A DNA stretch of 32,000 bases from Planctopirus limnophila DSM 3776 (GTDB lineage: Bacteria; Planctomycetota; Planctomycetia; Planctomycetales; Planctomycetaceae). The stretch is taken from NCBI RefSeq assembly GCF_000092105.1, contig NC_014148.1:300001-332000 (forward strand), in the 5' to 3' direction. The notes under the pieces are model-generated. The model had not been told where the DNA came from and did not search any database. It worked only from the letters and a program-made list of their open reading frames with translations. Positions 1 to 28,767 of the stretch are shown in pieces. The translations under genes and the position numbers were made by a program. How positions within the stretch are numbered: the stretch's first letter is position 1; every line of letters begins with the position of its first letter.

Positions 1-3000
1 ATCAGAAATGGTCGAGGTGATGCTGAATTGCCCCGGGAGCACATCGCGAATCCGGATTAAAGGCACACTTTCGAGCAGCTTTCCACTTCTGGCATCGAGC
101 ACATGCCATTCAATAGAGACGGCATCGCTTTCCACTGGTCGTTCGACGATCACTCCCAGTCTCGAAAAGAGGTACCAGCCATCGGAAAGCACACTGACCT
201 TACGGTCTTCACTCCCTTCGTTGCCGCCGCGATATGTCCAGCGGATTTCACCACTTTCGAGATCGAGTGCTGCCAGTTCTACACCCTCTTTGACGAGACG
301 TCGCACATACAGATGTGAGCCCGCCTGCACCGGGTTAAAGGGAAGGTGCGAGTAGGCAATGGCTGAGCCTGGTTCTTCATTGGCATCGCTTTGCCACTTC
401 CGATTCAATGTGGCTCGATCCAAGGCCACCGTTCGCGAGCGATGATGAAGAATGAGCTGGTGGTCCGTCTCAAGGCAGGCTAACTGACGTGTCCACAGAT
501 CGCCCTGTCGATACTCTGAACGATCCGCATCTTTTCCAGCGGGTGGATCAAAGGGAAAAACGACCTGGCTTTCCCAACTGTTGGCCACTGCCGGTACAGG
601 CTGAAGAGCCACGTTTCGAGCTGTAGTTTCTGCTTCACCCCAGACATTCTGCTTGAGGAATTCGCGCGTCTGTACCAAACCCGCCCATGAAGTTCCCTGA
701 AGTGCATCATCACGCAGGCGGAGTAGCGTTTTTTCCGGGTCAAAGCGATCTGGAAGTTTTGCTCCCAGGAGCCATTGCCGCAGTTGGATGGCATCCTCCA
801 GTGTGGAATCCGGAATAGCGCCCGCCTTGGCAAAGTGCTCAATGGCATCCTGCCACTGGCCAGCCGAAAGTGCGCGATCACCCAGCCATAAATGGGCCTG
901 AGCAGCAGCCATAGTTTGTGGAAACTGCAGCGTAATATTGCGAATGGAGATGATGTTGCCATCGGCCATGGCCTGACGAATACGCACATCGCCTGTGCTT
1001 CCCATCTGGTCACGCATCACTGCCAATAGTGACGGATATTGCTTCATGACTCGATCAATCGCCGCGGGTAATGAAACAAACAGATCAGGATCTGTCGCCA
1101 CGGGCAGGAGTTCTCCCTGATCTGTCGAAACCAGACTGGCAATGACCCGGCAACCATCCAGAAACGCTTCACCATCCAGAGCCGCCTGAAGTTCGGCACT
1201 GGCGTTGTATCCCTCTTTGCTCAATTGCAGCAGGAGTGGGTGCCGCCAGCTGCGTGACAGAACAGGAGCATCGCCAGATGTTGACGAGAGGGCCTGTAAC
1301 CATCTCATCCGCTTGACCAGCATTTCATATTGATAGGGTGGATTCTGATCCGGATGTGTCAGATCCCAGCGAGCCAGAAGTTCGTGAGAGGTTTTCAGTT
1401 GCTCGCTGGCTGAGCCAAGAAGTGCTGCGGTATTCAGGGCTTTGGAATCGCGCCGCACGAGACCATTCCATAGGGTGGTATGTGTCCAGAGTGGTGTGTT
1501 GGCCCAGAGAATCAGCGATTCATCGAGGTCGGGCCAGGCGGGTTGATCCACCGTATCAGCAGCAATCTGTCCAAATTGACCAGCCAGTTCTCGGGCACGC
1601 CATTCATCCCAGGCATGCTGTAATGGCAATAACCAGGCCATGGCTTTCAGACGTTCAACCGCAGGTCTTCGCCCCATGACGATTTGATTGATCAGCCGGC
1701 TCTGGAGCTTTCGAGACAGTTCTCGATAGATGGGCTGAGTTAATGACCAATACGCGTTGGCGAACCACCACTCTTCAGGATTGGTGCCGACAGGGCAATT
1801 CGTTTCCACCTGCTCGGACCACTTGGCTTCAGAGAGTGAGGGAGTCAACTCAGGTCGCGGCCCTTCATTGGCAAGTTTTGCCAGCAGGCTCCGATCGACA
1901 ATCGACTCGATATGAATCGCTGGCCGGATAATGAGTTGACCAATTTCAATGGCACGTGCTGCTTCTCCTCGCAGGCATTGCAGACCAATCGTGGCGACCG
2001 GCTCGAGGGGCAGATCCTGAGTATAGCCATCCGGCACAGGCGACCATGTTCGCCCATCGGCACTGGTGAAGAGCATCACCCCGGCGGAATGACCAATCAG
2101 TCGCCACCACTGTTTTTCGCCCAGGTGCAGTAGAGGTTGATGCTGCGGATCGTAATCCACTTCGTCGTGACCATGATGAGGATGCCCCAGTTGTACCACA
2201 TTTCGACCAGTGCGCCGGTTGTGATGCACCTGTATTGTGACGACGGGTTTTCCCGCACTGTTACCCAGATAAATGCCTGTGCCGCGGGTGGCCGAGTTGA
2301 GCTGCACACTGACATCAAAAAAACCTTGATATGGGAGTTTTGCGAAATGCTCTGCGGGTTGTTCGCGTGAGTTGCCGGTCAGCAGAACAGCACCACTCTC
2401 AAGCTGTTGCAACTCGCCTCGAGAATCTTTGGTCGGTTCCCACTCCAAAGTTTTAGGCTGCACAGCCTCCATATCCGGGAGAGTGGCGAGCACACCGAGT
2501 GGATCACGCCGGGGGACATCTGTCACTCGCAGGTAATCCAGTCCACGCAATCGATATTGACCATCGAGTTCAATCTGCTCGGGACAATTCTCGAAGGGAA
2601 CTTCCAAGAGAACTGCACGTTGTTTAATGAGAAGAAGTTTTCCCTCGTGCCAGGTCAGGTCGATTGTTCCCTGGCCTAATCGAGACCAGGCGGAGCCGTC
2701 AGTCCCCAGGAATTGTTCGCCAGCCGCCTTGCGGTCAATCGCCTCATCAGGCCCGGAACGTTTGACATCCACAGCAACCCACATCGCGGGCTGCCGATGA
2801 GGGAAGTATCGCAACTGGATTCCTTTTTTCCCTGACCAGACATTGATCGAAAGTTCGTTGACATCGAACATTGCGAGCCTGAGACAGCTATTCGTGAACC
2901 AGGGGGCCTTGAGCCTGGCCAGACCATTGACCTGCACAGTCCGGGTTTTCTGATGATTATGTTCGTGCAGATCGGCCCGGCGACCGGCCACGGGCCCCAA

Positions 3001-3783
3001 CCAGTCATTGAAGCGGTTCTGCTGAAGGCTATCGAGTTGCATGGTCGCCAGATCGGCAGCGAAAACTGATTCGCGGTAGCTCACTGGCTGTCGCTCGATG
3101 GCTGCTGGATGTTCCGGATCGGGCAGAGAACTGTTCGGCAGCCATTCGCTCCAGGGAGGCGGGGCAGCCACGACGACTTCCGCTGCAGGTACTACTGGAA
3201 CTGTCTGAGCTGTTGTCATCGCCCCTTCAACCGGTTGATTCGGGGTGGTCATCGCAGGATCTGACTTGCCCGTTGCGGACTTCGGATCAACTCCTTGAGG
3301 CGAGGTGGTATCGAACTTTTCACCTCGGTTTTGTGCGAGAAGTTGTGCTTCGGAGGCCTTCGCAGCATCAATGGTGGCCTGTGTCTGGGGAGTAGGTTCT
3401 GCTGGACGATCTTCTGGTTGACCTTCTTCGACCAGAAGATCGTTGTTCGCCAGTGGATTCCTGACTTTGGGCCAGAAGAGAGCACCGGCACCGACCAGCA
3501 TGGCAATTGCCAGAAACCCCACCAGCAGCTTCAGTTGACGGACATTCTGGCTGGCAGCATTCTGCCTTTTGTCCGCAGCCCGTAACAGGATCTTTTCGAC
3601 GGAGAGATCAATCGATGCATAATGTGTGCTCAAGGCTTCCTGCAACGAAAGATTTGCACTCAAGGCCTGCTGCAATTCGGGTGAGAAAGGCAGACGCTGC
3701 CTGAGCAATGCAATCTCAGCCGCAGTGAATTCTTCAGCGGTTTTTTCCTGGACGAGCTGCAGAAGTTCTTGATCACTCGCCAT
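1..3783 (-). CDS. Partial CDS (3' end beyond the window). Large single-pass membrane protein, anti-sigma-like, with a very large extracytoplasmic region ending in PQQ/beta-propeller-like repeats.
   Basis: Not in the supplied ORF track. I read the minus-strand frame codon by codon (plus-strand triplets starting at positions 1,4,7...) and found no tta/cta/tca triplet from 1 to 3780. ATG is at 3783-3781 and an in-frame stop sits two codons upstream (3789-3787). The N-terminus is MASDQELLQLVQEK... One hydrophobic helix (LKLLVGFLAIAMLVGAGALFW) occurs about 90 aa in, followed by a Pro/Thr/Gln-rich linker. A TPR-like stretch (AQAHLWLGDRALSAGQWQDAIEHFAKA) and a C-terminal 'LDLESGEIRWTY' propeller-like repeat follow. 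It lies 81 nt downstream of the ECF sigma gene on the same strand. Confidence 0.72.
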   Translation of the reverse strand, partial: MASDQELLQLVQEKTAEEFTAAEIALLRQRLPFSPELQQALSANLSLQEALSTHYASIDLSVEKILLRAADKRQNAASQNVRQLKLLVGFLAIAMLVGAGALFWPKVRNPLANNDLLVEEGQPEDRPAEPTPQTQATIDAAKASEAQLLAQNRGEKFDTTSPQGVDPKSATGKSDPAMTTPNQPVEGAMTTAQTVPVVPAAEVVVAAPPPWSEWLPNSSLPDPEHPAAIERQPVSYRESVFAADLATMQLDSLQQNRFNDWLGPVAGRRADLHEHNHQKTRTVQVNGLARLKAPWFTNSCLRLAMFDVNELSINVWSGKKGIQLRYFPHRQPAMWVAVDVKRSGPDEAIDRKAAGEQFLGTDGSAWSRLGQGTIDLTWHEGKLLLIKQRAVLLEVPFENCPEQIELDGQYRLRGLDYLRVTDVPRRDPLGVLATLPDMEAVQPKTLEWEPTKDSRGELQQLESGAVLLTGNSREQPAEHFAKLPYQGFFDVSVQLNSATRGTGIYLGNSAGKPVVTIQVHHNRRTGRNVVQLGHPHHGHDEVDYDPQHQPLLHLGEKQWWRLIGHSAGVMLFTSADGRTWSPVPDGYTQDLPLEPVATIGLQCLRGEAARAIEIGQLIIRPAIHIESIVDRSLLAKLANEGPRPELTPSLSEAKWSEQVETNCPVGTNPEEWWFANAYWSLTQPIYRELSRKLQSRLINQIVMGRRPAVERLKAMAWLLPLQHAWDEWRARELAGQFGQIAADTVDQPAWPDLDESLILWANTPLWTHTTLWNGLVRRDSKALNTAALLGSASEQLKTSHELLARWDLTHPDQNPPYQYEMLVKRMRWLQALSSTSGDAPVLSRSWRHPLLLQLSKEGYNASAELQAALDGEAFLDGCRVIASLVSTDQGELLPVATDPDLFVSLPAAIDRVMKQYPSLLAVMRDQMGSTGDVRIRQAMADGNIISIRNITLQFPQTMAAAQAHLWLGDRALSAGQWQDAIEHFAKAGAIPDSTLEDAIQLRQWLLGAKLPDRFDPEKTLLRLRDDALQGTSWAGLVQTREFLKQNVWGEAETTARNVALQPVPAVANSWESQVVFPFDPPAGKDADRSEYRQGDLWTRQLACLETDHQLILHHRSRTVALDRATLNRKWQSDANEEPGSAIAYSHLPFNPVQAGSHLYVRRLVKEGVELAALDLESGEIRWTYRGGNEGSEDRKVSVLSDGWYLFSRLGVIVERPVESDAVSIEWHVLDARSGKLLESVPLIRIRDVLPGQFSITSTISD

Positions 3784-3864
3784 GGCTTACCTACCCACTT
3801 CAACATCAATTGGGAGCAACGTTGATTGTTTCAATTCACGACGCATCATTTTGCCTGCTGATGA

Positions 3865-4419
3865 TCACATTTTTTTCAGTTTTCGTTCGAGACAACTTTT
3901 CAGTGCCAGTCTGGCTCGATGTACCAGCAGTTTGATAGCGCCTTCGCTGCGGCGAAGAACGTGCCCGATATCACACAGTTTCTGCTCCGAGCGATACTTG
4001 AGTTCAATGGCCTGGCGGGCACTTGGCCCTAACGCTTCGAGGCATTGAGGAAGGTTTTCGAGCACATCGGCATCCAAGGTCCCTGCAGCTCCCCCGGTTA
4101 ACGATTCCAGGTCGAAGCAAAGCTCTGTCCAACCCACCTCCCGGCGGCGGCGGACACTTCGTGTCCACTCCCGCAGGACATTGCGGGCAATGCCCAGAAG
4201 CCATGGCCTGATCAATGACGTCGAATCGAACCGCGTGCGTGCTTCGTAGAACCGCAGAAACACTTCCTGAACGAGATCATCCGCATCGGCCGCCTGTGCC
4301 AGTCGTGCCCGCAGAAAGCCATAGATGGCACGCTGATGCAGTTCAATCACCTGTGAAAAGGCTGCTCGATCTCCTTCGAGAACTCGCTGCATCAATTCCT
4401 GGTCAACGGCTGACACCAT
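3865..4419 (-). CDS. ECF-type RNA polymerase sigma factor (sigma-70 family, regions 2 and 4)
   Basis: 184 aa. Region 2-like DDLVQEVFLRFY...RPWLLGIARNVLREW and region 4-like LPQCLEALGPSARQAIELKYRSEQKLCDIGHVLRRSEGAIKLLVHRARLALK. Size is typical of ECF sigmas. Confidence 0.9.
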   Translation of the reverse strand: MVSAVDQELMQRVLEGDRAAFSQVIELHQRAIYGFLRARLAQAADADDLVQEVFLRFYEARTRFDSTSLIRPWLLGIARNVLREWTRSVRRRREVGWTELCFDLESLTGGAAGTLDADVLENLPQCLEALGPSARQAIELKYRSEQKLCDIGHVLRRSEGAIKLLVHRARLALKSCLERKLKKM

Positions 4420-4468
4420 CCGCCAATGTTCATTATTTGAGAAAAGCTGCTGAGAAGACCACTGCCCA

Positions 4469-5206
4469 TCATTGATCGAGCGACTCGAATCGTTTCGCCA
4501 ATTTCTCGATCACACCGCCGGGTATTTCATGTTGCCCGCCAAAGGCCCAGAAGTCCAAGGGAATTCCGCTGGATTCGAGTAACTGTCCCAGCATTTGGGC
4601 CCCCGCAAAAGGCAATACAGGATCGTATTTTCCATGCGATTGAAAGACATTCAGCTTCTGGCCCAGATCCGGATGACTGGAAAGATATTCTGTCCAGGCG
4701 GGTCGGCAAATGAGTGCTCCAGAAAACAAAACCAGCCATCGCGGCTGGAGTGCTCCTGTGAGAGTCAGATGGGTCGAGACCATGGCTCCTTGAGAAAACC
4801 CTCCCAGAATCAAACGATCCTCCGGAAGATCGAGGGCCTGCAGACGAGCCTTGATTCCGCTCTGCAATTGCCGGGAAGCCTCTTCAATGCCCGGGGGAAC
4901 TTCATCAACCAGTTCGAGCAGGCTCCCGGCCTGAGTGAGCGAAAGAAGCCTCTGCATATTGATCGGCCACCACGCGCGACCACCGGGAATGCCCCACTCG
5001 GCCATATCGATCGGCGCTTCCGGGAAGAGAAATTCCATGCGGCCAGCCACTTCTGGCGCTGCCTCTTCGATGGCTTCGGCCAGGCCCACGAGATCTGTCC
5101 CTGAGGCTCCATAACCATGGCAGAACACGACCAGCCATTGTGGCTTTTCCGGCGAAAAAGCGACGGCATTCAGCGGGCCAAACGAAACAGCCTGTGGATC
5201 ATTCAT
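4469..5206 (-). CDS. Alpha/beta hydrolase, phospholipase/carboxylesterase family
   Basis: 245 aa. Contains VVFCHGYGASGTDL, the nucleophile elbow GFSQGA (GxSxG), an HGKYDPVLP acid-residue segment and a C-terminal GGQHEI His segment. Confidence 0.8.
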   Translation of the reverse strand: MNDPQAVSFGPLNAVAFSPEKPQWLVVFCHGYGASGTDLVGLAEAIEEAAPEVAGRMEFLFPEAPIDMAEWGIPGGRAWWPINMQRLLSLTQAGSLLELVDEVPPGIEEASRQLQSGIKARLQALDLPEDRLILGGFSQGAMVSTHLTLTGALQPRWLVLFSGALICRPAWTEYLSSHPDLGQKLNVFQSHGKYDPVLPFAGAQMLGQLLESSGIPLDFWAFGGQHEIPGGVIEKLAKRFESLDQ

Positions 5207-5306
5207 TCAAAAAACTCATCAGAAAAAATTGGTATGGGAACACAAAGGCAATCGACGAATTTTCAAAGGGGACAGTCTGGGGATGTTCGACGGGAACTAC
5301 GTCGCG

Positions 5307-7118
5307 TCAGCCATCGACCAGAGTGCGCATGCCAGGCATTTGCGTTTCATCTTCGAGTCGCGGCCACGTGAGGACAAACCGCGATCCTTTGCCGATCTGC
5401 GATTCGACCGTGATGTCGCCACCATGCTCGCGAATGATTTTTTGGCTCACAGCCAGGCCCAGGCCCGTCCCACGGGCTCCTTTGGTCGATTCGAACATCA
5501 GAAACATTTTGGACAGATTTTCCGGCGCGATTCCTGTGCCATTGTCTTCGACCGAGACCCACAACAGATCCCGGGGCTCATCGAAGCCTGTCTGCACGAC
5601 CACGCGAGGATCATCGGCATGTTCGACGGCATCCATGGCGTTACTGACGACGTTCAAAATCGCCCGGTGAATCCCCTCGGGATCAAACGTGCTGGTCGGT
5701 AATTGAGTGGCGGGCTGAAAAATCAGTTTGGTTTCGACTTCACCCGCCTGAGGCTGCATCAACTCGACAACATCCTGGGCCACATCGTTGAGTTGTGAAA
5801 GCTTCATTTCGGGCTGACGCTCTTTGGAGAAGGTCAGCATATCCATCACGAGGTTATAGATTTTGCCCTGGTTCTTATCGACGATCCCCCAGCCTTTGCG
5901 AATCAGTTCGGTGTCTGTCTTCCCCAGACCCAGGTCAATCAGATAACTCCCTCCCCGCACACCCTGCAAAATGTTCTTAATATGATGGCTCAACGTGGCG
6001 ATGGTCTGGCCCATAGCCGCTAATCGTTCCGACTTGACGAAAGCCTCCTGGAAACGCTGATTCTCCACAGCCAGTGCTGCCTGCCGACCGATGGCCGCGA
6101 GCACACGCAGTTGCTCTTCGCTGAATCGCGGCTGATCTCCTAACAGAATCATTTCTTCAGCCGACGATGTGATATCAAGATAAACCACACCCATCAGTTC
6201 GTGGCGGGCCTGGAGTGGGACACACATCGCTTCGCGGATACCGGCCCTCACAATACTTTGACCGGTTTCAAAGCGGCTGTCGTGCCGGGCATCGGATGTC
6301 CTGACAGCCTGCAAACTTTTGACAACATAATCGACGATGGTTCGAGAAACGGGAATTCTGCCCGTTGTCTTTTCTCCAGGGTCTTTAGCTGCTGAGGCTT
6401 CTTTAGTTGATGTTCCCTCTCTGAATGATGCACCCAGAGAGGAGCTTTCGTCCTGAATGGTGCTTTCCTGCCCGCGAAAACCGACTGCGACCGCTTGCAG
6501 TGCTTCCGTCTCTGCATCCCGCAAGAGGACACAGCCTCGATCCGCTCCTAAGGTTTCAATCGCAAGATCCAGCATGCGTTGCAGAATCTGCGTCATCGAT
6601 GACGACGGTCGAACGGCTTCCTCCGAAATGCGATAGAGCATCTGCAGATTCATCGTCGCCTGGAGTCGGGCATCGGTATTGTTCGAAACAGCAGCAGGCA
6701 AATCCTTCAGGGGCAATCCGCCCGTCAAAGCCATTTGCCCCACAATGCTCGATCGATCCGTCCCATCGGCCTGATGCAATAACTCGACACGATCTGCCGC
6801 CCGTCTGGAACCGACATGATCTCCCTGAAGGAACTGCAGAATTGTCCGGCCAATCTGGATCTGATCACCGGGTTTAAGTGTTCGCGACTTGACCTGCGCT
6901 CCATTAACAAATGTACCATTCGAACTGTTGCGATCCTTGAGCACGAACTTGTCGCCTTCGCGTTCGATGGCGGCATGAGTGCGCGAGACCTCGGTGTCGA
7001 GCAACCGCACAGGATTATGCAGACTGCGACCGATCGTGATCGGAACATCCCCGAGTTCAAAACGGGTTCCCTGATCCGCCCCCTGAACGATCAGAAGTGA
7101 GGCTCTCGCGATGGGAAT
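5307..7118 (-). CDS. Sensor histidine kinase with N-terminal FHA domain and central GAF-like domain (FHA-GAF-HisKA-HATPase)
   Basis: FHA signature ITIGRSLHNPVRLLDTEVSRTHAAIEREGDKFVLKDRNSSNGTFVNG. H-box ATLSHHIKNILQGV, N-box ILNVVSNAMDAV, G1 VEDNGTGI and G2 GTGLGLAVSQKI. The track starts at GTG 7010, but the frame is open to 7133 and encodes the missing FHA strands. The end at 7118 assumes an ATT start 9 nt after GGAG (see findings). The minimal safe extent is 5307-7010. Confidence 0.85.
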   Translation of the reverse strand: MPIARASLLIVQGADQGTRFELGDVPITIGRSLHNPVRLLDTEVSRTHAAIEREGDKFVLKDRNSSNGTFVNGAQVKSRTLKPGDQIQIGRTILQFLQGDHVGSRRAADRVELLHQADGTDRSSIVGQMALTGGLPLKDLPAAVSNNTDARLQATMNLQMLYRISEEAVRPSSSMTQILQRMLDLAIETLGADRGCVLLRDAETEALQAVAVGFRGQESTIQDESSSLGASFREGTSTKEASAAKDPGEKTTGRIPVSRTIVDYVVKSLQAVRTSDARHDSRFETGQSIVRAGIREAMCVPLQARHELMGVVYLDITSSAEEMILLGDQPRFSEEQLRVLAAIGRQAALAVENQRFQEAFVKSERLAAMGQTIATLSHHIKNILQGVRGGSYLIDLGLGKTDTELIRKGWGIVDKNQGKIYNLVMDMLTFSKERQPEMKLSQLNDVAQDVVELMQPQAGEVETKLIFQPATQLPTSTFDPEGIHRAILNVVSNAMDAVEHADDPRVVVQTGFDEPRDLLWVSVEDNGTGIAPENLSKMFLMFESTKGARGTGLGLAVSQKIIREHGGDITVESQIGKGSRFVLTWPRLEDETQMPGMRTLVDG

Positions 7119-8860: not shown

Positions 8861-11722
8861 TTACTCCTTGGCCAGATCTCCCGCGATCACAGTGAGGATC
8901 TGGTTGGGATGGATGTGCCTGCGGACGGCTTCCAGAACCTTTTCCGTCGTCAGGTCGCCAATTGCTGTTTCAAGTTTGGCGACATACTGCATGGTGCGGC
9001 CAGCGTAAAGGTTTTCTTCGAGCAGCCGGGCGATCTTGGGGTCTTCTGTACGACCAACCTGCTGGGCTTGCAGATAGCCCTGCTTGGCGGCGTCCAGTTC
9101 CTGCTGCGTGACCCCTTCCTTCAGCAGTCGGGCGAGTTCTTCGTTGACCGCAGCATTCACCTTTTCCATGTTCGCCGGATTGGCAATGGCATAGAGGGAA
9201 AGCGTGGCCCGCTGGTCGAGCATGGCTGCCCGGAAGGCGGAGCCCACCCCATACGAGAGACCTTCCTTTTGACGAATGCGGTCACCCAGCCGCGAGGAAA
9301 GTGCGCCAGCTCCGAGCACATAATTGCCCACAATCATGGCTGGGTAATCGGGGTGATCGTCACTCATCGGCATGACGGCACCACCAAAGTAGAAGGCATT
9401 GGCTTTATCGGGAATCTGAATCCGCTTCACTTCGGCTGTGATCGGAACAGACCCGGTGCGGCTAATGCGTTCGTACGTCTGATCGGACTTCCAATCGGCC
9501 AGTACTCCCTTGAGAGTTGACTCGACTTCGGCTGGATCGAAGTCGCCCACAATCGCAATCTGGCCGACTTGAGCACTCAGAAAATCGTTGTAGAGCAGCT
9601 TGAGGCCTTCCACTTCAATTGCTTCGACGAGTTTGAGTTCTTCTTCCACGGTAGGAACTGAGCGAACATCGCCAGCAGGGTAAGGCGAAAGAGCCTTTGA
9701 GACCGTTTTGACAGCCAGTGTCTGAGGATCTGTCAGACCCTGTTCGAGATTGGCTCTGACCTGCTGCTTGATGACAGCCAGTTCACTTTCCGGGAACGCA
9801 GGCTCTCGTAGAACCTGCTTCAATAAGCCCAGGACTGCCACCAGATTCTGGCGTTTGGTCTCAAGGACAAACGTCGCTTCGCCCGCATTGCCACCAGCAC
9901 TGAGTGAAGCAAAGTTCTTGTCGAGCGCATCCTGCAGTTGCTGCCGGGTGAGTGACTTGGTGCCGCGGAGCATCATCGGGGGCAAAAACTCGCAGGCCTT
10001 AGCGAGGCCAAAGAGTGATTTTTCGTTGCCATAGCGGAGGGTTAATCGCAAGACGACAGTTGAAGAACGGGTCTTTTTGGGGAGCATGGCAACCTGGACG
10101 CCATCAATCCTGGTGCGAAGGGTACGCTCTTCGATCGCCAGCGGGCTGACGTCGAACGCTTCGCCCACGGAGGTTTCTTCGCGGCCCTTGTAATCCCCAA
10201 TCATCTTGGCGAGTTCGGGAGTCGCAGGAACCGAAGTGCGTTCGGGCTTTTCGGTGGGAATATACAGGCCCACAGTTCGATTGGATGGCTGGAGATACGC
10301 CTTGGCCACGCGGTTGACGTCTTCGACAGTGACGGCTTCGAGGCGATCACGATAGAGGAAGTACAATCGCCAATCCCCCTGGGCGGCCCACTCACTCAGT
10401 TCGATGGCAATCTCGGCAGAGTCTGAAGCTCCCATTTCCCGCTGCTTGAGCAGACGCAAGCGAGCGCGTTCGAGCTCTTCCTGAGTGACGCCTTTTGATG
10501 CGGTCTCATTGAGGACATCGAGCATGGAATCGAGGACGACCTGTGGATCGTTACCAGCGGCGACTTCGGCCATAAATCGAAGCACACCGGGATCATGCAG
10601 GGCATAGGCGGCACCGGAAACACTGGCGGCTTTCTTGCCTTGAACCAGAGCTTTGTACAATCGACCCGAGGGCTGCATGGTAAGGATCGATTCGAGAACG
10701 TCGATGGCCACGAAATCCGGGTGAGCCCCGGAAGGAATGTGATAAACCGCACCGACGACAGCGACATCTCCCACCCGGCGGAGAACGACCTGACGCTCAC
10801 CATCTTGAGCAGGTTCTTCGGTGTAAGTGTTATCGAGCACGCGCGTGGGCCGAGGAAGCTTGCCGAATGTTTCGCCGATAATCCGCAAGGCTTCTTTGGG
10901 TTCAAAGCGGCCCGCGACGACGAGCATGGCGTTATCAGGCTGATAGTACTTGCGATAGAACGATTTCAAACGTTCAACCGGGACTCGTTCAATATCGGCC
11001 CGGTTACCAATGGTTGATTTGCCGTAGTTGTGCCATTCGAAGGCCGCAGCCATCATGCGTTGACCAAGGATGGAAGCAGGGCTGTTTTCACCACGTTCGA
11101 ATTCGTTACGCACGACCGTCATTTCGGAAGTGAGGTCTTCTCCTTTGACATGGCTGTTCATCATGCGATCGGCTTCGAGGCGAATGGCAAACTCGAGGTT
11201 GTCGCCTTGGGCCGGGAGCGTTTCAAAGTAGTTGGTGCGGTCGAGCCAGGTCGTGCCATTGAAGTCGGCACCGCGTTCCTGCAGGGCTTTGGGGACACTG
11301 GGAACATCTGGTGTCCCCTTGAAGAGCATGTGTTCGAGGAGGTGAGCCATGCCGGCTTCGCCATAACCTTCATGACGCGACCCGACGAAGACCGTCAGGT
11401 TGACTGTCACAGTGGGTTTGGAAGGATCTGGAAACAGGAGCACGCGCAGGCCGTTTTCGAGTTTGTATTCGCTGATCCCTTCGATCTCAGTAACTTTCAT
11501 GGGCATTTCGGCTTTTGAACTGGAGGAACAGAAGATGATCTGGCTGACAATGACCATCGCCAGCAGGGAGAGGCGGGCAGCACCAGATAAAACAGATTGT
11601 CGAGAGGTCAGACCCTTCCGGGTTAAAAACATCCGGGTCGATAACACCGGGGCCAGAACAGCCTGTGCTGTCACTTGATTCAAGAGACGCATCGTCCTGC
11701 GGATCATCCGGTTCCACTCCAT
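8861..11722 (-). CDS. M16 (pitrilysin/insulinase) family zinc metallopeptidase, double-module with signal/anchor
   Basis: 953 aa. Inverted zinc motif HLLEHMLFKG (HxxEH) with a downstream glutamate region (RNEFERGEN). A second, inactive M16-like half follows. The N-terminal hydrophobic segment is LSLLAMVIVSQIIFCSSSS. The true start may be an internal Met. Confidence 0.9.
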   Translation of the reverse strand: MEWNRMIRRTMRLLNQVTAQAVLAPVLSTRMFLTRKGLTSRQSVLSGAARLSLLAMVIVSQIIFCSSSSKAEMPMKVTEIEGISEYKLENGLRVLLFPDPSKPTVTVNLTVFVGSRHEGYGEAGMAHLLEHMLFKGTPDVPSVPKALQERGADFNGTTWLDRTNYFETLPAQGDNLEFAIRLEADRMMNSHVKGEDLTSEMTVVRNEFERGENSPASILGQRMMAAAFEWHNYGKSTIGNRADIERVPVERLKSFYRKYYQPDNAMLVVAGRFEPKEALRIIGETFGKLPRPTRVLDNTYTEEPAQDGERQVVLRRVGDVAVVGAVYHIPSGAHPDFVAIDVLESILTMQPSGRLYKALVQGKKAASVSGAAYALHDPGVLRFMAEVAAGNDPQVVLDSMLDVLNETASKGVTQEELERARLRLLKQREMGASDSAEIAIELSEWAAQGDWRLYFLYRDRLEAVTVEDVNRVAKAYLQPSNRTVGLYIPTEKPERTSVPATPELAKMIGDYKGREETSVGEAFDVSPLAIEERTLRTRIDGVQVAMLPKKTRSSTVVLRLTLRYGNEKSLFGLAKACEFLPPMMLRGTKSLTRQQLQDALDKNFASLSAGGNAGEATFVLETKRQNLVAVLGLLKQVLREPAFPESELAVIKQQVRANLEQGLTDPQTLAVKTVSKALSPYPAGDVRSVPTVEEELKLVEAIEVEGLKLLYNDFLSAQVGQIAIVGDFDPAEVESTLKGVLADWKSDQTYERISRTGSVPITAEVKRIQIPDKANAFYFGGAVMPMSDDHPDYPAMIVGNYVLGAGALSSRLGDRIRQKEGLSYGVGSAFRAAMLDQRATLSLYAIANPANMEKVNAAVNEELARLLKEGVTQQELDAAKQGYLQAQQVGRTEDPKIARLLEENLYAGRTMQYVAKLETAIGDLTTEKVLEAVRRHIHPNQILTVIAGDLAKE

Positions 11723-19066: not shown

Positions 19067-20392
19067 TCATGGCTTGGGTGCTTCAATCCGATACAGATGA
19101 TGATCGGTTCGCAAGTAGATCGATTGATCAACTGGTGCAAGAGTGGCCAGCGTGCGGCCTGGAAGTGGGTTCTCGGCGAGAACTTCAAACTCGGTTCCCG
19201 GTCTCACGACTGTGGTGAGACCGGCTTCATTGGTGATGTACAGCTTGCCGGCTGCAAAGACCCAGGAGGCTGAGTAGTTCCCGGGGATCCGCTGCTGCCA
19301 GTGAACTTTCCCCGTCTTCATATCAACGCAACTGGCAATGCCGCCGTCACTGATGAAGTAGATTTCGTCACCCACTACGACGGGCGAAGGATTGAGTGGA
19401 GCTCCTTTTTTCATCTGCCAGCGCACGTGTGTTTCTGTGATATCGCCTTGACCTGTGGGATCGATCGCAAAGACAACCGGTGTGTTATAGCCCGACGAAA
19501 CGACGACGAGACCATGGGCATAGACTGGCCGGGGTACATTGGAATACCCTTTGGGGTATCGCACTTTCCAGATTTCTTCGCCAGTTTTTGGGTTATAGGC
19601 GATGACCCATTCTCCGCCCGGGCACACGACCTGTGCCTGCTTTGTGCCATCCGGTAGCGGCACTTGAATGAGTAGCGGAGTGCAATAGGCCATGGCCCCT
19701 TCGCGACTGGTACGCCAGACTTCCTTGCCGGTCAGTTTATCGAGTGCCACGACGAACTGTTTGTCGTCGCCATCGCAACTGATGATCAGCAACTGATCGA
19801 CCACCACTGGTGATGCCGCTGGCCCGTGCCGGTGATCGTATTCGAGTTTGGTCTTCCAGAGGATCTTCCCGGACGGGTCGAGACAAGCAGTGCCATGAGC
19901 ACCAAAGTGGACATAGATGCGATTGTCTTCAATCCAAGGCGTGGGTGAGGCATGCGAGTTTTTGGAATGAATGGCACCAGGATCGTCGAGTTCAAAAACG
20001 AGGACATCGTGCAGAATCTGGCCCTGGGCGGCATCGACGCAAATGGCCCGCAACTGCTTGCCGTCATCGACGGCGGTTGTCAGCCAGATTTTGCCATCAC
20101 GCAGTGCGGGGGAACTCCAGCCACGGCCAGGGATCTCGGTTTTCCAGCGAATGTTCTTCTCTTCGCTCCATTCGATGGGGAGCATCGTTTCGGAACTCAG
20201 GCCTTCGCCCGAAGGACCACGGAACTGCGGCCAATCCGCTGCCAGCACCCTGGTCTTTGAGAAAGAGACACTCAGCATGACCAGCAGACTGGCCACACCT
20301 AGAAACTGGCACAAAGAGCGGGAAGAGAAACTGGCGGACAAGCGAAGGCGGGCAGTCAAGAGACAAACCATGGGCAGGCACTCGATCAACAA
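19067..20392 (-). CDS. Secreted PQQ-like beta-propeller repeat protein (paralogue 1)
   Basis: 441 aa. A signal-like N-terminus is followed by ADWPQFRGPSGEGLS...IRWKTEIPGRGWSSPALRDGKIWLTT and repeated 'G(K/E)xxW' blade motifs. It is clearly paralogous to 27445-28767. Confidence 0.8.
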   Translation of the reverse strand: MLIECLPMVCLLTARLRLSASFSSRSLCQFLGVASLLVMLSVSFSKTRVLAADWPQFRGPSGEGLSSETMLPIEWSEEKNIRWKTEIPGRGWSSPALRDGKIWLTTAVDDGKQLRAICVDAAQGQILHDVLVFELDDPGAIHSKNSHASPTPWIEDNRIYVHFGAHGTACLDPSGKILWKTKLEYDHRHGPAASPVVVDQLLIISCDGDDKQFVVALDKLTGKEVWRTSREGAMAYCTPLLIQVPLPDGTKQAQVVCPGGEWVIAYNPKTGEEIWKVRYPKGYSNVPRPVYAHGLVVVSSGYNTPVVFAIDPTGQGDITETHVRWQMKKGAPLNPSPVVVGDEIYFISDGGIASCVDMKTGKVHWQQRIPGNYSASWVFAAGKLYITNEAGLTTVVRPGTEFEVLAENPLPGRTLATLAPVDQSIYLRTDHHLYRIEAPKP

Positions 20393-20509: not shown

Positions 20510-20540
20510 CAAAAACAACATGAAAACTTCTTCATGTTGT
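20510..20540 (-). terminator. Candidate intrinsic terminator of the yjbQ-cassette transcription unit
   Basis: The minus strand reads ACAACATGAA-GAAGTT-TTCATGTTGT followed by TTTTGC. This is a 10-bp A/T-rich stem with a 6-nt loop and a short U-tract, so it is orientation-specific to the minus strand. It lies 20 nt after the relic stop. Confidence 0.4.
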
Positions 20541-20558: not shown

Positions 20559-20792
20559 TCAAGCACCTGCTGCGGGCGAATTCCAGTGAATCGCACCTTT
20601 TTCGACTTCCCGGCCCATGATCTGCCGCTTCATGTGAGCGTCGGGATTGTCTTCACCGATCCAGCTATACGCGTTTCGCCAAGATCAGGCATTAAAGTCT
20701 GCGAGGCCCGGAACGACCTTCGGTTCAGGACTCGCACTGGCAAGCTCAGGCGGCACCATCAACAAATCGTGAAACACCTTCGTTCTTTCCAT
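20559..20792 (-). pseudogene. yjbQ-like relic (C-terminal-half fragment with an in-frame TGA)
   Basis: A single frame reads MERTKVFHDLLMVPPELASASPEPKVVPGLADFNA-[TGA 20687-20685][41 protein letters not shown]. [18 protein letters not shown] matches [18 protein letters not shown] of the intact YjbQ. The N-terminal half and the conserved C-terminal G-x-L-x-x-G-x-W-Q/E block are missing. Confidence 0.5.
20605..20660. repeat. Direct repeat (downstream copy) of yjbQ coding sequence
   Basis: ACTTCCCGGCCCATGATCTGCCGCTTCATGTGAGCGTCGG is identical over 40 nt to 22021-22060. After 2 mismatches comes a 12-nt identical block, TTGTCTTCACCG. The offset is exactly 1416 bp. Confidence 0.9.
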
Positions 20793-20818
20793 GGGGCCAA
20801 GTCAGGCTGCCGAACCTG

Positions 20819-21112
20819 TTATGAGGACTCTCCGATGATCTCATCAAAGCGTTCCGCCAGTACGAGGAACTCATCGGCCCAGCCGTTGCTCATGGAAGTT
20901 TCCTGTAACGGGCCAGTTACCACAAACAGAAACCTCAATTCATCAATCTTGACCGTCAAGGATTGCTCCAATCGTCGAATTGAGTGATCGAGACGTTCAA
21001 GGATGTCCTTAGCATCCATGCACGACCAGTCTGAGTCCTCCGACTGGGCCACTATGTCACGGCATCGTTGAAGGACTTTTAGAAGAGCAGATTCGTCGAA
21101 AACTGATCGCAT
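20819..21112 (-). CDS. Small acidic cytoplasmic protein, unknown function (cassette gene C, 97 aa)
   Basis: GGAG lies 6 nt upstream of ATG 21112 (MRSVFDESALLKVLQRCRDIVAQSEDSDW...LFVVTGPLQETSMSNGWADEFLVLAERFDEIIGESS). It starts 14 nt after the stop of gene B. No TM segment or signal peptide. Confidence 0.6.
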   Translation of the reverse strand: MRSVFDESALLKVLQRCRDIVAQSEDSDWSCMDAKDILERLDHSIRRLEQSLTVKIDELRFLFVVTGPLQETSMSNGWADEFLVLAERFDEIIGESS

Positions 21113-21125
21113 ACAAATCTCCACT

Positions 21126-21509
21126 TTAGGCAGGTGAGTCATCCCAGTCCCATTCATCAGGTCGAAAGCCCTTGATCTCTTGGCCGTGGAACATCATCCC
21201 CGTGAATACTGTGTTCGTTACAACTGCCCCCTTGAATGCTGCATGTTCTATCAGGACGTTCTCGAAAACGGCGTCTGTCAAATCCGCTCCTCTGAAGTCA
21301 GTGCATTTGAGGTTCATGTTGCGAAACGTCACCCCTTGAAGATTTGTTCGTCTGGCATCGATATCACTGAAGAACCCATCCTGAAAGGTCGTTCCTTGTA
21401 GATTTGCACCCTCCAGCACTGAACCATCCGCGAGGCAGACTCCCACAAATACTCGTTCCCCGTTCGAGTATCTCCTGAGTAGTTCTTCACCGTCGATGTC
21501 ATCGTTCAT
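21126..21509 (-). CDS. Pentapeptide-repeat protein (cassette gene B, 127 aa)
   Basis: Consecutive A(D/N)LxX-type pentapeptides: GANLQGTTFQDGFFSDIDARRTNLQGVTFRNMNLKCTDFRGADLTDAVFENVLIEHAAFKGAVVTNTVF. Its start overlaps the stop of gene A (ATGA). Confidence 0.85.
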   Translation of the reverse strand: MNDDIDGEELLRRYSNGERVFVGVCLADGSVLEGANLQGTTFQDGFFSDIDARRTNLQGVTFRNMNLKCTDFRGADLTDAVFENVLIEHAAFKGAVVTNTVFTGMMFHGQEIKGFRPDEWDWDDSPA

Positions 21510-21892
21510 TTGCGGGTTAATCCATCTACAAGATCAATACTCAGTTGCTCGAACATGTAAGACTGATCGCTCACGGAACGGGGCGACACTTCAATCACGT
21601 CCCTCCCTGACAGTTCGTAGTAATCGCCAAACCTCTCAATGCAGTCCATCCAGTCGCCCAAATGGTTTGTAGTCTTGTGGAGCAGGTCTGAATAAAGTTT
21701 GTCGATTGGCTCGAAAACCTCTAGATTTATCAATCGCCCTTCACATCGTGTGAACTCAATCGAATCGAGGATCAGGTGCATCCGAAGACAGATATCCGGC
21801 AAGTGCTCGCTGGTAAGTTTAGATGGATTAAGCGGAGGACGAACGAGTCGCCCCTTAGACACCAAACTAGCTGCAAGCCAATCGATCTTCAT
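21506..21892 (-). CDS. Small acidic cytoplasmic protein, unknown function (cassette gene A, 128 aa)
   Basis: GAGGTGA lies 8 nt upstream of ATG 21892, which is 14 nt after the yjbQ stop. MKIDWLAASLVSKGRLVRPPLNPSKL...HLGDWMDCIERFGDYYELSGRDVIEV. No motif recognised. Confidence 0.6.
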   Translation of the reverse strand: MKIDWLAASLVSKGRLVRPPLNPSKLTSEHLPDICLRMHLILDSIEFTRCEGRLINLEVFEPIDKLYSDLLHKTTNHLGDWMDCIERFGDYYELSGRDVIEVSPRSVSDQSYMFEQLSIDLVDGLTRK

Positions 21893-21905
21893 TTAAAGAC
21901 TCACC

Positions 21906-22328
21906 TCACTCCCCAATCACTTTCACCAGCACCCGCTTATCCCTACGTCCGTCGAACTCGCCATAAAAAATCTGTTCCCACGGTCCGAAGTCGAGTTGGC
22001 CTTTGGTAATCGCCACCACCACTTCCCGGCCCATGATCTGCCGCTTCATGTGAGCGTCGGCGTTGTCTTCACCGGTGCGATTGTGAGCGTAACGCTGAGG
22101 TGAAGCGTCGAAGGGTGCGAGATTTTCGAGCCACTTTTTGTAGTCGCTGTGCAGACCCGGCTCATCATCATTAATGAACACGCTGGCGGTAATGTGCATC
22201 GCGTTGACCAGCACCAGCCCTTCCTGCACGCCGCTGGCCCGCACAATGGCCTCGATCTTCGGCGTGATGTTCTCAAACGCCATGCGAGCCGGGAGGTTGA
22301 AGGTCAGGTATTCCGTGTGGGATTTCAT
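21906..22328 (-). CDS. yjbQ: YjbQ/UPF0047 family protein (secondary thiamine-phosphate synthase family)
   Basis: 140 aa. [36 protein letters not shown]...[61 protein letters not shown] matches the family pattern I recall from E. coli YjbQ (...HTSASLT.NE...YEHDYEG.DDMPSHIKSS..G...G.WQGI.L.E.R). Confidence 0.88.
22021..22076. repeat. Direct repeat (upstream copy, inside intact yjbQ)
   Basis: See 20605-20660. Confidence 0.9.
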
Positions 22329-22513
22329 CGAACGAATTGTTCCTTACACCTGAGAAACAGGCTGGAGTTTTTCCAGCTCTTTGGAACGGAAATCTTGCGC
22401 ATCACTTCTACATTATCAAAATCTCCCACGAATGATCGGTCGATCCATTACGTGAGGAAGTGGTGATGGGGACTGAGGGAATCCATCGTTCCAGAACTCG
22501 CCAAACGCCGCAA

Positions 22514-27444: not shown

Positions 27445-28767
27445 CTATGGCGTGGCGATTTTCCACAAGTGGGCATCGCTTCGCAGATAGAGAGCACCAT
27501 CAGAAAGCGATGGCGTGGCCAGGATCGTTTCATCCAGAAGACTCTCAGCGACGATGGTGCCTTTGCTGCCAGTGAGATCGACCACAAAACATTTACCCGA
27601 TTCATTGACGCAATAAAGCTTACGGTCAGCAATGACTGGAGAAGCACTGAAAGGACCTTCGAGCCTCAACTGCCAGAGGAGTTCTCCCTTATCGACATTC
27701 GCACAGAGCAAGACCCCCGCTCCTGAGAGACAATAAACTTTACCTTCCGCAACCACTGGCGTGGCTGTTCCAGGTTTGAGTTTGTTCTCCTGCCAGAGTT
27801 TTTCGGGAGGCGTATTCGAGTTGGCAGGCCGGAGTGCCACCAAGCCATTGGATGGAATGAAGATCGTCTCGCCTTCCCGTGCTGAAGAAGGAATGGTGGC
27901 GGCCCCTTCACCAAATGACCACAGGATGTTTCCTGTTCGGGCATCGACAGCATCGGCGCCTTTGGAGGACTGGAGCAGCACTGTCTGGCCATCGGCCAGG
28001 AGGAGTGGCGATGTCCAGTTCGCTCGCCTGGGGCGGTCCAGTTTCCAGAGGGTTTCACCCGTTGAGGTGTTGAGCCCGGTCGTGAGCGATTCGCTGTCAT
28101 TCTCGACCTGTGTCACCAGGACATCACCCGCCACCACCGGAGAGGAAGACATGCCCAGACTGTTACTGGCATTGGGGTAATCGAGTGTCAGGCCGCGCAT
28201 CCAGAGCAACTGGCCCGTAAGGTCGAGACAGATCACATCGTTGCTGGAGAAAAAGGCGAAGATCTTCTCGCCATCACTGGCGGGAGTGGGAGCTGCATTG
28301 CAGGTTTTGGGATGCGTCAGGCTGCGGCCTGTCGCCAGAAATCGGCGTTCCCAAAGTAATTCTCCTGTACTCGCTTTGAAGCAGAGGATGTGCAGATTGT
28401 CCTGCCTGGGGCCGGAACTTGCTGTCACGACGACCCGGTCATCGATAATGATCGGGCTGGAAAGGCCACGGCCGGGAAGATCGACCTTCCATGCCACATT
28501 TTTGCCACTGCTGTCAAACTCGACGGGTGGTGCGGCACTGCGGGAGATTGCCGTACTGGAACTCCCGCGAAATTGCCGCCAGTCTTCGGCAAGCAGTCGA
28601 TGATTCGCATGGATCCCCAGCGCCAGAATCAGCCCTGCACTGAGCCAGCCAACGGAAAACAGTGGCTTCACCGGAGAGATGTTCGCACGCGTTAATGGAC
28701 GGACCATAGAAGGCTCAATTCTGCTCTGGTGGCAACAGGATCCGTAATTCTGGCAATAATGTGCCAT
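27445..28767 (-). CDS. Secreted PQQ-like beta-propeller repeat protein (paralogue 2)
   Basis: 440 aa. EDWRQFRGSSSTAISR...VAWKVDLPGRGLSSPIIIDDRVVVTAS with repeated 'TG(E/N)xLW' blades. The likely start is an internal Met (MVRPLTRANISPV...). Confidence 0.8.
   Translation of the reverse strand: MAHYCQNYGSCCHQSRIEPSMVRPLTRANISPVKPLFSVGWLSAGLILALGIHANHRLLAEDWRQFRGSSSTAISRSAAPPVEFDSSGKNVAWKVDLPGRGLSSPIIIDDRVVVTASSGPRQDNLHILCFKASTGELLWERRFLATGRSLTHPKTCNAAPTPASDGEKIFAFFSSNDVICLDLTGQLLWMRGLTLDYPNASNSLGMSSSPVVAGDVLVTQVENDSESLTTGLNTSTGETLWKLDRPRRANWTSPLLLADGQTVLLQSSKGADAVDARTGNILWSFGEGAATIPSSAREGETIFIPSNGLVALRPANSNTPPEKLWQENKLKPGTATPVVAEGKVYCLSGAGVLLCANVDKGELLWQLRLEGPFSASPVIADRKLYCVNESGKCFVVDLTGSKGTIVAESLLDETILATPSLSDGALYLRSDAHLWKIATP

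Follow-up and report, generated by a model that had tools for sequence, protein, structure and literature searches.

We analyzed a 32,000-nt stretch of Planctopirus limnophila DSM 3776 (the window), in which an intact yjbQ gene (UPF0047) is followed on the minus strand by three small genes, designated A (Plim_0253), B, and C. An initial annotation, made from the sequence alone, had described the three open reading frames (ORFs) of 128, 127, and 97 amino acids (aa) just as we find them, but had taken them for a single three-gene system, and one that fitted no system it could name. A, B, and C are probably best explained as cargo of a single integrative element of the serine-recombinase type, now decayed, that targeted yjbQ. 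The initial annotation had missed this explanation along with the recombinase remnant that follows C. The features of the locus are as follows.

21906-22328, minus strand: yjbQ, intact (PF01894, E = 4e-37; TIGR00149, E = 1.8e-30)
22194-22205, minus strand: core AACGCGATGCAC within yjbQ, codons N42-A-M-H45, the putative attB crossover region
21506-21892, minus strand: A, 128 aa, acidic
21126-21509, minus strand: B, 127 aa, pentapeptide repeats plus an acidic tail; overlaps A by 4 nt
20819-21112, minus strand: C, 97 aa, an acidic helical bundle with the motif TGPLQETSMSNGW
20667-20801, plus strand: psiD, a shortened and degenerate remnant of the C-terminal helix-turn-helix (HTH) segment of a serine recombinase, convergent with C and detected by tblastn
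20605-20705, minus strand: displaced yjbQ 3' remnant (psi-attR side), of which 20605-20658 (codons ~86 to 103) is the robust part
20511-20539, minus strand: inverted repeat CAACATGAA-N6-TTCATGTTG followed by TTTTT, read directly from the sequence

The four genes are tightly spaced. The gaps between yjbQ and A and between B and C are 13 nt each, 1 nt shorter than had been claimed, and A and B overlap by 4 nt in an ATGA, as described. Each gene had been credited with its own ribosome-binding site; A and C are preceded by GAGGTGA and GGAG, respectively, but B has no clear Shine-Dalgarno sequence and depends on the ATGA overlap. C starts at the 97-aa ATG that is common to 29 homologues, which leaves the mechanically called 112-aa ORF unsupported. 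A site scan detected no promoter- or terminator-like sequence between yjbQ and C, and A, B, and C are likely cotranscribed from the yjbQ promoter; the 13-nt gaps and the ATGA overlap suggest that they are probably translationally coupled as well. The inverted repeat at 20511-20539, which the consensus scan did not list, might conceivably terminate this yjbQ-A-B-C transcript. A terminator-like hairpin, GCTGGAAAAACTCCAGC with a T-rich tail, is present at 22361-22377 (minus strand), ~30 nt upstream of the yjbQ start codon, and could terminate an upstream transcript or serve as a leader structure. An Rfam scan of the window returned no match.

All three proteins are acidic, with net charges at pH 7 of -6.2 (A), -11.3 (B), and -9.4 (C), near the residue counts of the initial annotation (-6, -10, and -9), and their highest 19-residue hydropathies of 0.6 to 1.1 bear out its statement that none has a transmembrane helix. 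The A+T richness of the block is likewise confirmed: its G+C content is 49.0%, compared with 54.3% for the window, placing it at the 1.5th percentile among windows of the same size, and the count of 23 G+C in the 60 nt at 21501-21560 is reproduced. G+C at third codon positions is 0.54 to 0.55 in A, B, and C versus 0.72 in yjbQ. We compared the locus with others, designated by L numbers, of which L011 to L090 are yjbQ loci from species genomes and L097/L098 and L112 are from metagenomes. Relative to the orthologous block in L097, dN/dS is 0.19 for A, 0.14 for B, and 0.11 for C (ranging over comparisons from 0.15 to 0.19 for A and from 0.11 to 0.25 for C), indicating that these are real genes under purifying selection and more than chance ORFs.

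As had been noted, the block is followed by a duplicated piece of yjbQ. Positions 20605-20705 match 22021-22121 within yjbQ at 78%, with 52 of 54 positions identical at 20605-20658 and an exact run of 40 nt. Such duplications recur: yjbQ copies that lack the N-terminal part but keep the natural stop codon occur downstream of a full yjbQ in 10 other Planctomycete loci (L008, L009, L010, L016, L017, L018, L043, L071, L097, and L001, which has three copies), and none occurs among the 34 non-Planctomycete yjbQ loci retrieved. The copies within an array are 77 to 93% identical in nucleotide sequence, suggesting that they came from diverged donors, and one fragment retains 100% protein identity to the full copy despite 11% nucleotide divergence.

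The truncated copies are associated with a second recurring component. Downstream of C in L097 lies a convergent 63-aa ORF, D, which closes most array units and matches both the PF07508 Recombinase domain (E = 1.8e-6, above the cut-off) and the phrog_95 integrase family. When D from L097 was searched against the window by tblastn, its residues 19 to 63 matched at 62% identity (E = 3e-13), and this match is psiD. A metagenome search with D alone retrieved 18 loci, 16 of which have yjbQ or its truncated form (yjbQ') adjacent to D. An array unit thus consists of yjbQ' from codon ~42 onward, zero to three highly variable small genes, and D facing back toward them; the window matches this unit, with psiD after C and then the yjbQ remnant.

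The junctions between these components are precise. In two sequence classes, the DNA upstream of D gives way to yjbQ' at an identical nucleotide position, directly ahead of AAYGCNATGCA (N42-A-M-H), and ~15 yjbQ 3' fragments begin at the core AACGCGATGCAC. The 5' fragments end at the core: that of L112 stops after the full core, and those of L013 and L015, which are independent, stop after AACGC, immediately behind GTCAACGC. The full yjbQ genes heading the arrays in L097, L108, L013, and L015 encode L-C-N-A-M-H at the core. Some fragments start at other codons, from 84 to 124, including the window remnant (codon ~86), and these look like the products of later deletions, as exemplified by a D that is cut at residue ~10 and joined to codon 113. 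We also considered attC-like folded sites at the junctions, but these sequences fold no better than shuffled ones (z = -1.2 to +0.7). The yjbQ subfamily involved is 72 to 91% identical in protein sequence to the Planctopirus copy across phyla that include Myxococcota, Gemmatimonadota, Acidobacteriota, and Thaumarchaeota, which implies either unusually strong constraint or frequent transfer. Two further observations concern L013: a 232-aa small serine recombinase (3147-3845) has a C-terminal HTH like that of D (32% identity), and an inverted yjbQ 5' fragment (10474-10614) stands tail-to-tail with the full yjbQ and may be an inversion product.

One metagenomic locus, L112, contains what looks like an intact element. 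Its order is a yjbQ 5' fragment (aa 1 to 45), a 688-aa recombinase that abuts this fragment, a small resolvase and a Rep-like ORF, a full yjbQ, a 186-aa cargo gene, D, and yjbQ' (aa 40 to 140). The 688-aa protein contains Resolvase (PF00239), Recombinase (PF07508), and zinc ribbon (PF13408) domains. The 12-mer GGAGTATCCCAA/GGAGCATCCCAA occurs exactly twice in the 16 kb of L112 (chance expectation, 0.04), in inverted orientation and flanking the core; the two copies are complementary at 11 of 12 positions and lie 26 nt apart around AACGCGATGCAC, at distances of 12 nt and 2 nt from it. The candidate attP reconstructed from them, GGAGTATCCCAA-N26-TTGGGATGCTCC, is ~50 bp long, dyad symmetric, and centered at codon 42. 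When the L112 attL and attR are joined, the recombinase becomes fused in frame to D, yielding an ORF of 770 aa. The segment 9496-12302 of L112 encodes the small resolvase (224 aa, HTH-containing) and the Rep-like ORF (278 aa, a weak match to Rep, REP_ORF2-G2P), which hint at a plasmid-like free form.

In 13 of 14 relic junctions as well, no stop codon interrupts the frame of D from the core to the end of a basic, conserved linker of ~30 codons, and this, together with the 770-aa fusion, indicates that D is the detached C-terminal segment of the recombinase and that attP lies inside the recombinase gene. D has a dN/dS of 0.05 to 0.25, from which we had considered it an independent regulator gene under its own selection, an idea superseded by the in-frame fusion across attP; since some copies have an ATG of their own, independent expression of D in relics is possible. 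An in-frame ATG before yjbQ', once a potential sign that truncated YjbQ is produced, is better explained as the antisense of the recombinase linker. D has no detectable similarity to the Recombinase domain of the L112 protein itself. The full yjbQ carried by L112 (8777-9196, minus strand) encodes L-C-N-S-L-H at the core instead of L-V-N-A-M-H, and this alteration may make it a poor target for the element's own recombinase. Searches of viral contigs returned no match to the L112 recombinase.

Taken as a whole, these sequences strongly indicate a family of elements, each with a gene for a large serine recombinase, whose site of integration is codon ~42 of yjbQ, at the core AACGCGATGCAC, and which bring a yjbQ copy of their own with cargo genes behind it. 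With attP inside the recombinase gene, integration appears to leave the last ~90 codons of that gene (the basic linker and the HTH segment D) at attR, beside the displaced 3' part of the host yjbQ. Recombination between the two yjbQ 5' parts, by then duplicated, would probably later remove the recombinase module and leave yjbQ-cargo-D-yjbQ'. Repeated integration into the restored yjbQ could then build arrays, with the newest unit nearest the promoter. In such a scheme yjbQ would be both promoter donor and integration target, its part from codon 42 on being what the cassettes carry, and the window would represent one relic, yjbQ-A-B-C-psiD-psi-yjbQ', further eroded by deletion.

The three cargo genes do not travel as one unit. 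The intact triad is found only in the close relative L097/L098 (84, 90, and 94% aa identity for A, B, and C, respectively). Elsewhere the triad is split. A occurs alone after yjbQ in L003 and L121, deep within an array and without B or C in L001, and beside a frameshifted B remnant in L004/L005, with A itself intact in L004. C occurs alone after yjbQ in L008/L009; in L010 and L099 it has other neighbors, and in L006 it lies at a distance from any yjbQ. Relatives of C also reside in integron arrays. An Alteromonas homologue is a single gene between 118-nt attC-type repeats, adjoining an IntI-like integrase, and a Microbulbifer homologue sits within a similar array of small ORFs beside IS110. 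Because A and C occur apart, and C can be the sole gene of an integron cassette, the triad does not make up an obligate system of three parts, contrary to what had been suggested.

Acquisition of the block from elsewhere, which the initial annotation had also proposed, is supported. The atypical composition is one indication, the restriction of the complete unit to the close relative L097/L098 is another, and the history of the block relative to its anchor is a third. Window positions 20695-22205 are collinear with the L097 cassette, with shared homology starting at 22205; over A-B-C the two are 87 to 97% identical in nucleotide sequence (dS = 0.24 to 0.37), as opposed to ~77% over the adjoining part of yjbQ, where dS is saturated, indicating that the cargo block has a more recent common ancestry than the anchor. 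The site itself is hypervariable. In L001, L099, and L121 the flanking genes are orthologous (64 to 76% aa identity): an FAD oxidoreductase is encoded upstream, and downstream come a 296-aa gene and one for arginine decarboxylase. The content between yjbQ and the downstream flank is wholly different, and by this comparison the position behind yjbQ is a hotspot. One ORF in the variable region behind yjbQ-A of L121 (8114-8464, 116 aa) matches domain 3 of EF-Tu (PF03143), an odd item among cargo as an isolated EF-Tu fragment. About 1.2 kb upstream of yjbQ in L097, an ArdC-like protein, a RuvB-like AAA protein, and a tyrosine integrase are encoded at 557-5722, possibly a second, unrelated mobile element.

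In the window, the flanking genes are housekeeping genes (TruD, deformylase, an M16 peptidase, and an ABC ATPase). The initial annotation had reported no toxin, nuclease, ATPase, or integrase nearby, and the scanned flanks indeed hold no intact recombinase, no toxin, and no ATPase system; it had overlooked psiD, the only such trace kept. Two paralogous PQQ-type beta-propeller proteins of ~440 aa (PF13360) are encoded on the same strand 7 kb apart (19067-20392 and 27445-28767), flanking the yjbQ locus.

Of the three proteins, only B has a recognizable fold, as had been claimed. It matches PF00805 (E = 4e-15) and PF13599 (E = 7e-15), with repeats at residues ~20 to 105. Its closest solved structure is Np275/Np276 (2J8K; E = 2e-12), and its matches to QnrB1 (E = 4e-7) and MfpA (E = 9e-5) are both weaker. 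The proposed analogy to gyrase protectors of the Qnr/MfpA type fails: B scores 24 bits against the curated Qnr model (cut-off, 240) and 19 bits against the MfpA model (cut-off, 360), and at 127 aa it is too short for the DNA-sized rod that proteins of the Qnr/MfpA/McbG type form as dimers (~180 to 220 aa expected). Np275/Np276 and the Alr5209 family (NF052603, E = 1e-8) provide the best sequence matches and are of similar size, with a short right-handed beta-helix, but B falls under the Alr5209 family cut-off (35 versus 125 bits) and has an acidic C-terminal tail.

A and C have no match in Pfam, NCBIfam, PADLOC, or PHROGs. At E <= 1, the defense models of PADLOC-DB 2.0 gave zero matches to yjbQ or to any of the three genes. 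A belongs to a small family, with 55 representatives in a set of 1.84 billion proteins, that is largely confined to Planctomycetes, whereas the family of C is large (1380 relatives). The AlphaFold models of both are confident (pLDDT of 88 for A, predicted to be alpha/beta, and 90 for C), yet fold and profile searches, the check that the initial annotation had recommended, returned no significant match for A in PDB and BFVD or for C in PDB. A resemblance of C to PedB, the pediocin immunity protein (TM score, 0.54 to 0.59), has a probability of 0.35 and was taken as noise. A plasmid collection contained no match to C, and viral contigs contained one distant match each to C and D. Longer members of the A family have unrelated N termini, so that they offer no YjbQ-A fusion as a functional link; the C-terminal extension of one of them, P0169 (...LPILADALEEAGCDNADILSHCR...CWVVDLILGKE), presumably resembles the TIGR02996 repeat-companion domain, which is common in Gemmata and myxobacteria.

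The cargo pool as a whole gives some indirect indication of function. Of the 80 cargo ORFs collected from 30 array loci, 50 are singletons and the rest form 12 small clusters, with a median length of 141 aa and a median pI of 5.1. Pfam matches in sister arrays comprise CdiI_3 (three), DUF4241, pentapeptide, and HEAT_2 (two each), DUF4303, DUF7660, and DUF2281 (one each); three further matches, to housekeeping families, belong to flank genes and not to cargo. A scan of 10 larger cargo ORFs for the HEAT_2 and DUF4303 members located neither, and these two families are accordingly given without particular ORFs. DUF4303 has been reported as a cognate immunity domain of Rhs toxins. Such sister cargo, together with the integron-cassette life of the C family, fits an immunity-type role, as does the fact that A, B, and C are small, cytoplasmic, and highly variable between related genomes, as in orphan immunity arrays. 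The earlier idea of an immunity array is therefore plausible with respect to its neighbors, although A and C themselves match no immunity family. As the least certain step of our reading, A, B, and C would most likely each be an independent small cytoplasmic protein that binds and neutralizes an incoming toxin or other hostile protein, with B serving as a decoy in the form of a short beta-helix. L100 (8956-9786, minus strand) and L102 (8765-9673, minus strand) encode related cargo proteins, of 277 and 303 aa, and one of the two has a subthreshold match to the GIY-YIG nuclease (E = 0.008); if this match is real, some cassettes may carry a toxin-like enzyme and not only small binding proteins.

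Several other explanations have to be set against a decayed element. Homologous recombination of the RecA type could by itself move cassettes via the flanking direct yjbQ repeats, with no dedicated recombinase and with D as a passenger or a regulator. The repeats are long enough to invite it (~300 nt, with exact runs of 30 to 40 nt even between diverged copies), searches detected no recombinase in 29 of the 30 array loci, and some fragments start at codons 84 to 124. We nevertheless regard exchange by RecA alone as unlikely: break points are precise to the nucleotide on both sides, with 3' fragments starting and 5' fragments ending at AACGC..., L112 has a recombinase, inverted half-sites, and an in-frame D, copies within an array differ by up to 23% and are poor substrates for RecA, and the odd fragment starts are attributable to secondary deletions. 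Comparably improbable is that A-B-C forms an obligate three-component system, such as an undescribed defense or protection system, that merely rides on the element. The ATGA overlap of A and B, the intact triad in L097/L098 with its dN/dS of 0.11 to 0.19, and the pairing of A with a B remnant in L004/L005 would all suit such a system, but A persists without B and C (L003, L121, L001) and C without A and B (L008, L009, L010, L099, L006), B decays in L004 while A stays intact, the relatives of C are single-gene cassettes flanked by attC, and the proteins have no PADLOC match and no enzymatic domain.

A closer tie to YjbQ has also to be weighed, in which YjbQ would act in core metabolism with A, and perhaps also with B and C, as its partners or regulators, the adjacency being ancient and vertical. 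A follows yjbQ with a spacer of 13 to 16 nt in diverged lineages (the window, L003, L004, and L121), and A and yjbQ have diverged to a similar extent between the window and L004. Where genomes share flanks, however, the gene immediately after yjbQ varies among them; the 80 best species-genome loci of yjbQ contain none of A, B, and C; fusions of YjbQ with A were not observed; and the composition of the block is atypical. As every cassette begins with yjbQ', adjacency follows from the structure of the element, and we judge a metabolic partnership very unlikely. The arrays also have a superficial likeness to the orphan arrays of contact-dependent inhibition (CDI) and Rhs systems, with CdiI_3 homologues after yjbQ fragments, as if YjbQ were a polymorphic toxin and the fragments and small genes were orphan toxin tips with their immunity genes. 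This is effectively refuted by the conserved C termini of the fragments, including the one that is unchanged in protein at 11% nucleotide divergence; there is no secretion or trafficking domain, and YjbQ is 72 to 91% identical across phyla. Nor is there a toxin gene or a displaced toxin tip beside A-B-C in the window, where the displaced pieces are yjbQ with conserved C termini.

Against the decayed element as the source of A, B, and C, and against an immunity role for them, stand a number of observations. L112 is the single intact element found, is a metagenome contig, and carries none of A, B, and C, and no homologue of its recombinase was detected in the other array loci; the loss of the recombinase module is an assumed step. 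Neither a yjbQ 5' fragment nor a P-arm motif is present in the window, where what remains of D is short and degenerate. For the homologues of A and C no toxin partner came to light, the two proteins have neither an immunity family nor a known fold in Pfam, NCBIfam, PADLOC, and fold searches, and only ~10 of the 80 cargo ORFs match any cargo-type family. Finally, A directly follows yjbQ or yjbQ' in five of six contexts, which could also mean a functional tie to YjbQ.

A more far-reaching version of the decayed-element explanation is somewhat doubtful. Planctomycetes might hold an undescribed family of serine-recombinase elements with attP inside the recombinase gene, whose integration at yjbQ would sever the C-terminal DNA-binding segment (possibly a switch between free and integrated states), which would carry a spare yjbQ, and whose relics would form integron-like archives of toxin-neutralizing genes; A and C would then be two new immunity folds and B a new minimal pentapeptide decoy. 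Even short of this, an orphan gene trio becomes a testable case, with codon 42 of yjbQ as a defined landing site, candidates for the recombinase and attP, and a diverse pool of small cargo. Confirmation of the element family would add a new site-specific integrase, its site of ~50 bp lying in a gene that is conserved across phyla, and would exemplify an integrase whose gene is split when it integrates. The yjbQ arrays point to a storage place of accessory, possibly immunity, genes in Planctomycetes, a group in which little is known of mobile elements and of systems of interbacterial conflict. A and C, with their confident models and no known fold relatives, would be good targets for structural and functional work.

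Among the closest known systems are the SCC elements (SCCmec and relatives), which insert at the 3' end of rlmH/orfX in staphylococci. Both combine a large serine recombinase, a single conserved housekeeping target, and variable accessory cargo, and both show tandem accretion and recombinase-less relics bounded by repeats of the target gene. The yjbQ elements differ in that their site is internal (codon 42), in contrast to the last few codons used by SCC, in that they carry a whole replacement yjbQ, with repeats of ~300 nt as opposed to ~15 to 20 nt, and in that attP lies inside the recombinase gene. Like integrons, the yjbQ arrays are promoter-proximal, one-directional series of small, diverse, and mostly uncharacterized genes, and the C family is itself flanked by attC in Alteromonas. 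Unlike integrons, they have no structured attC sites, the window flanks contain no IntI, and the L112 recombinase is of the serine type; what repeats is a fragment of a gene together with the tail of a recombinase, each such unit being the relic of a whole element. Orphan immunity arrays are known from CDI and Rhs orphans, the auxiliary clusters of type VI secretion systems in Vibrio, and the AID clusters of Bacteroidales. There too, small cytoplasmic proteins (CdiI_3 and DUF4303 included) lie behind a conserved gene, with displaced gene fragments as scars, but in the yjbQ arrays the fragments derive from a housekeeping gene and not from a toxin, and no toxin gene is present.

In the integration-dependent immunity of cluster G/N/P mycobacteriophages, attP lies in the repressor gene, and a tyrosine integrase targets a tRNA gene (PMC9262239). 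As in the yjbQ elements, attP is within a coding gene and integration removes the C-terminal part of its protein, whose form differs between the free and integrated states; in the yjbQ elements, however, it is apparently the gene of the serine recombinase that is split, and the part cut off would be a DNA-binding HTH segment. Our literature searches on yjbQ/UPF0047 in connection with immunity, hotspots, integrases, and islands yielded no description of the Planctomycete arrangement and a single related report, in which yjbQ of Vibrio cholerae is an insertion hotspot for defense-carrying mobile elements (PMC12082036). The phylum and the yjbQ subfamily differ, but in both cases the same gene is the landing site for small accessory islands.

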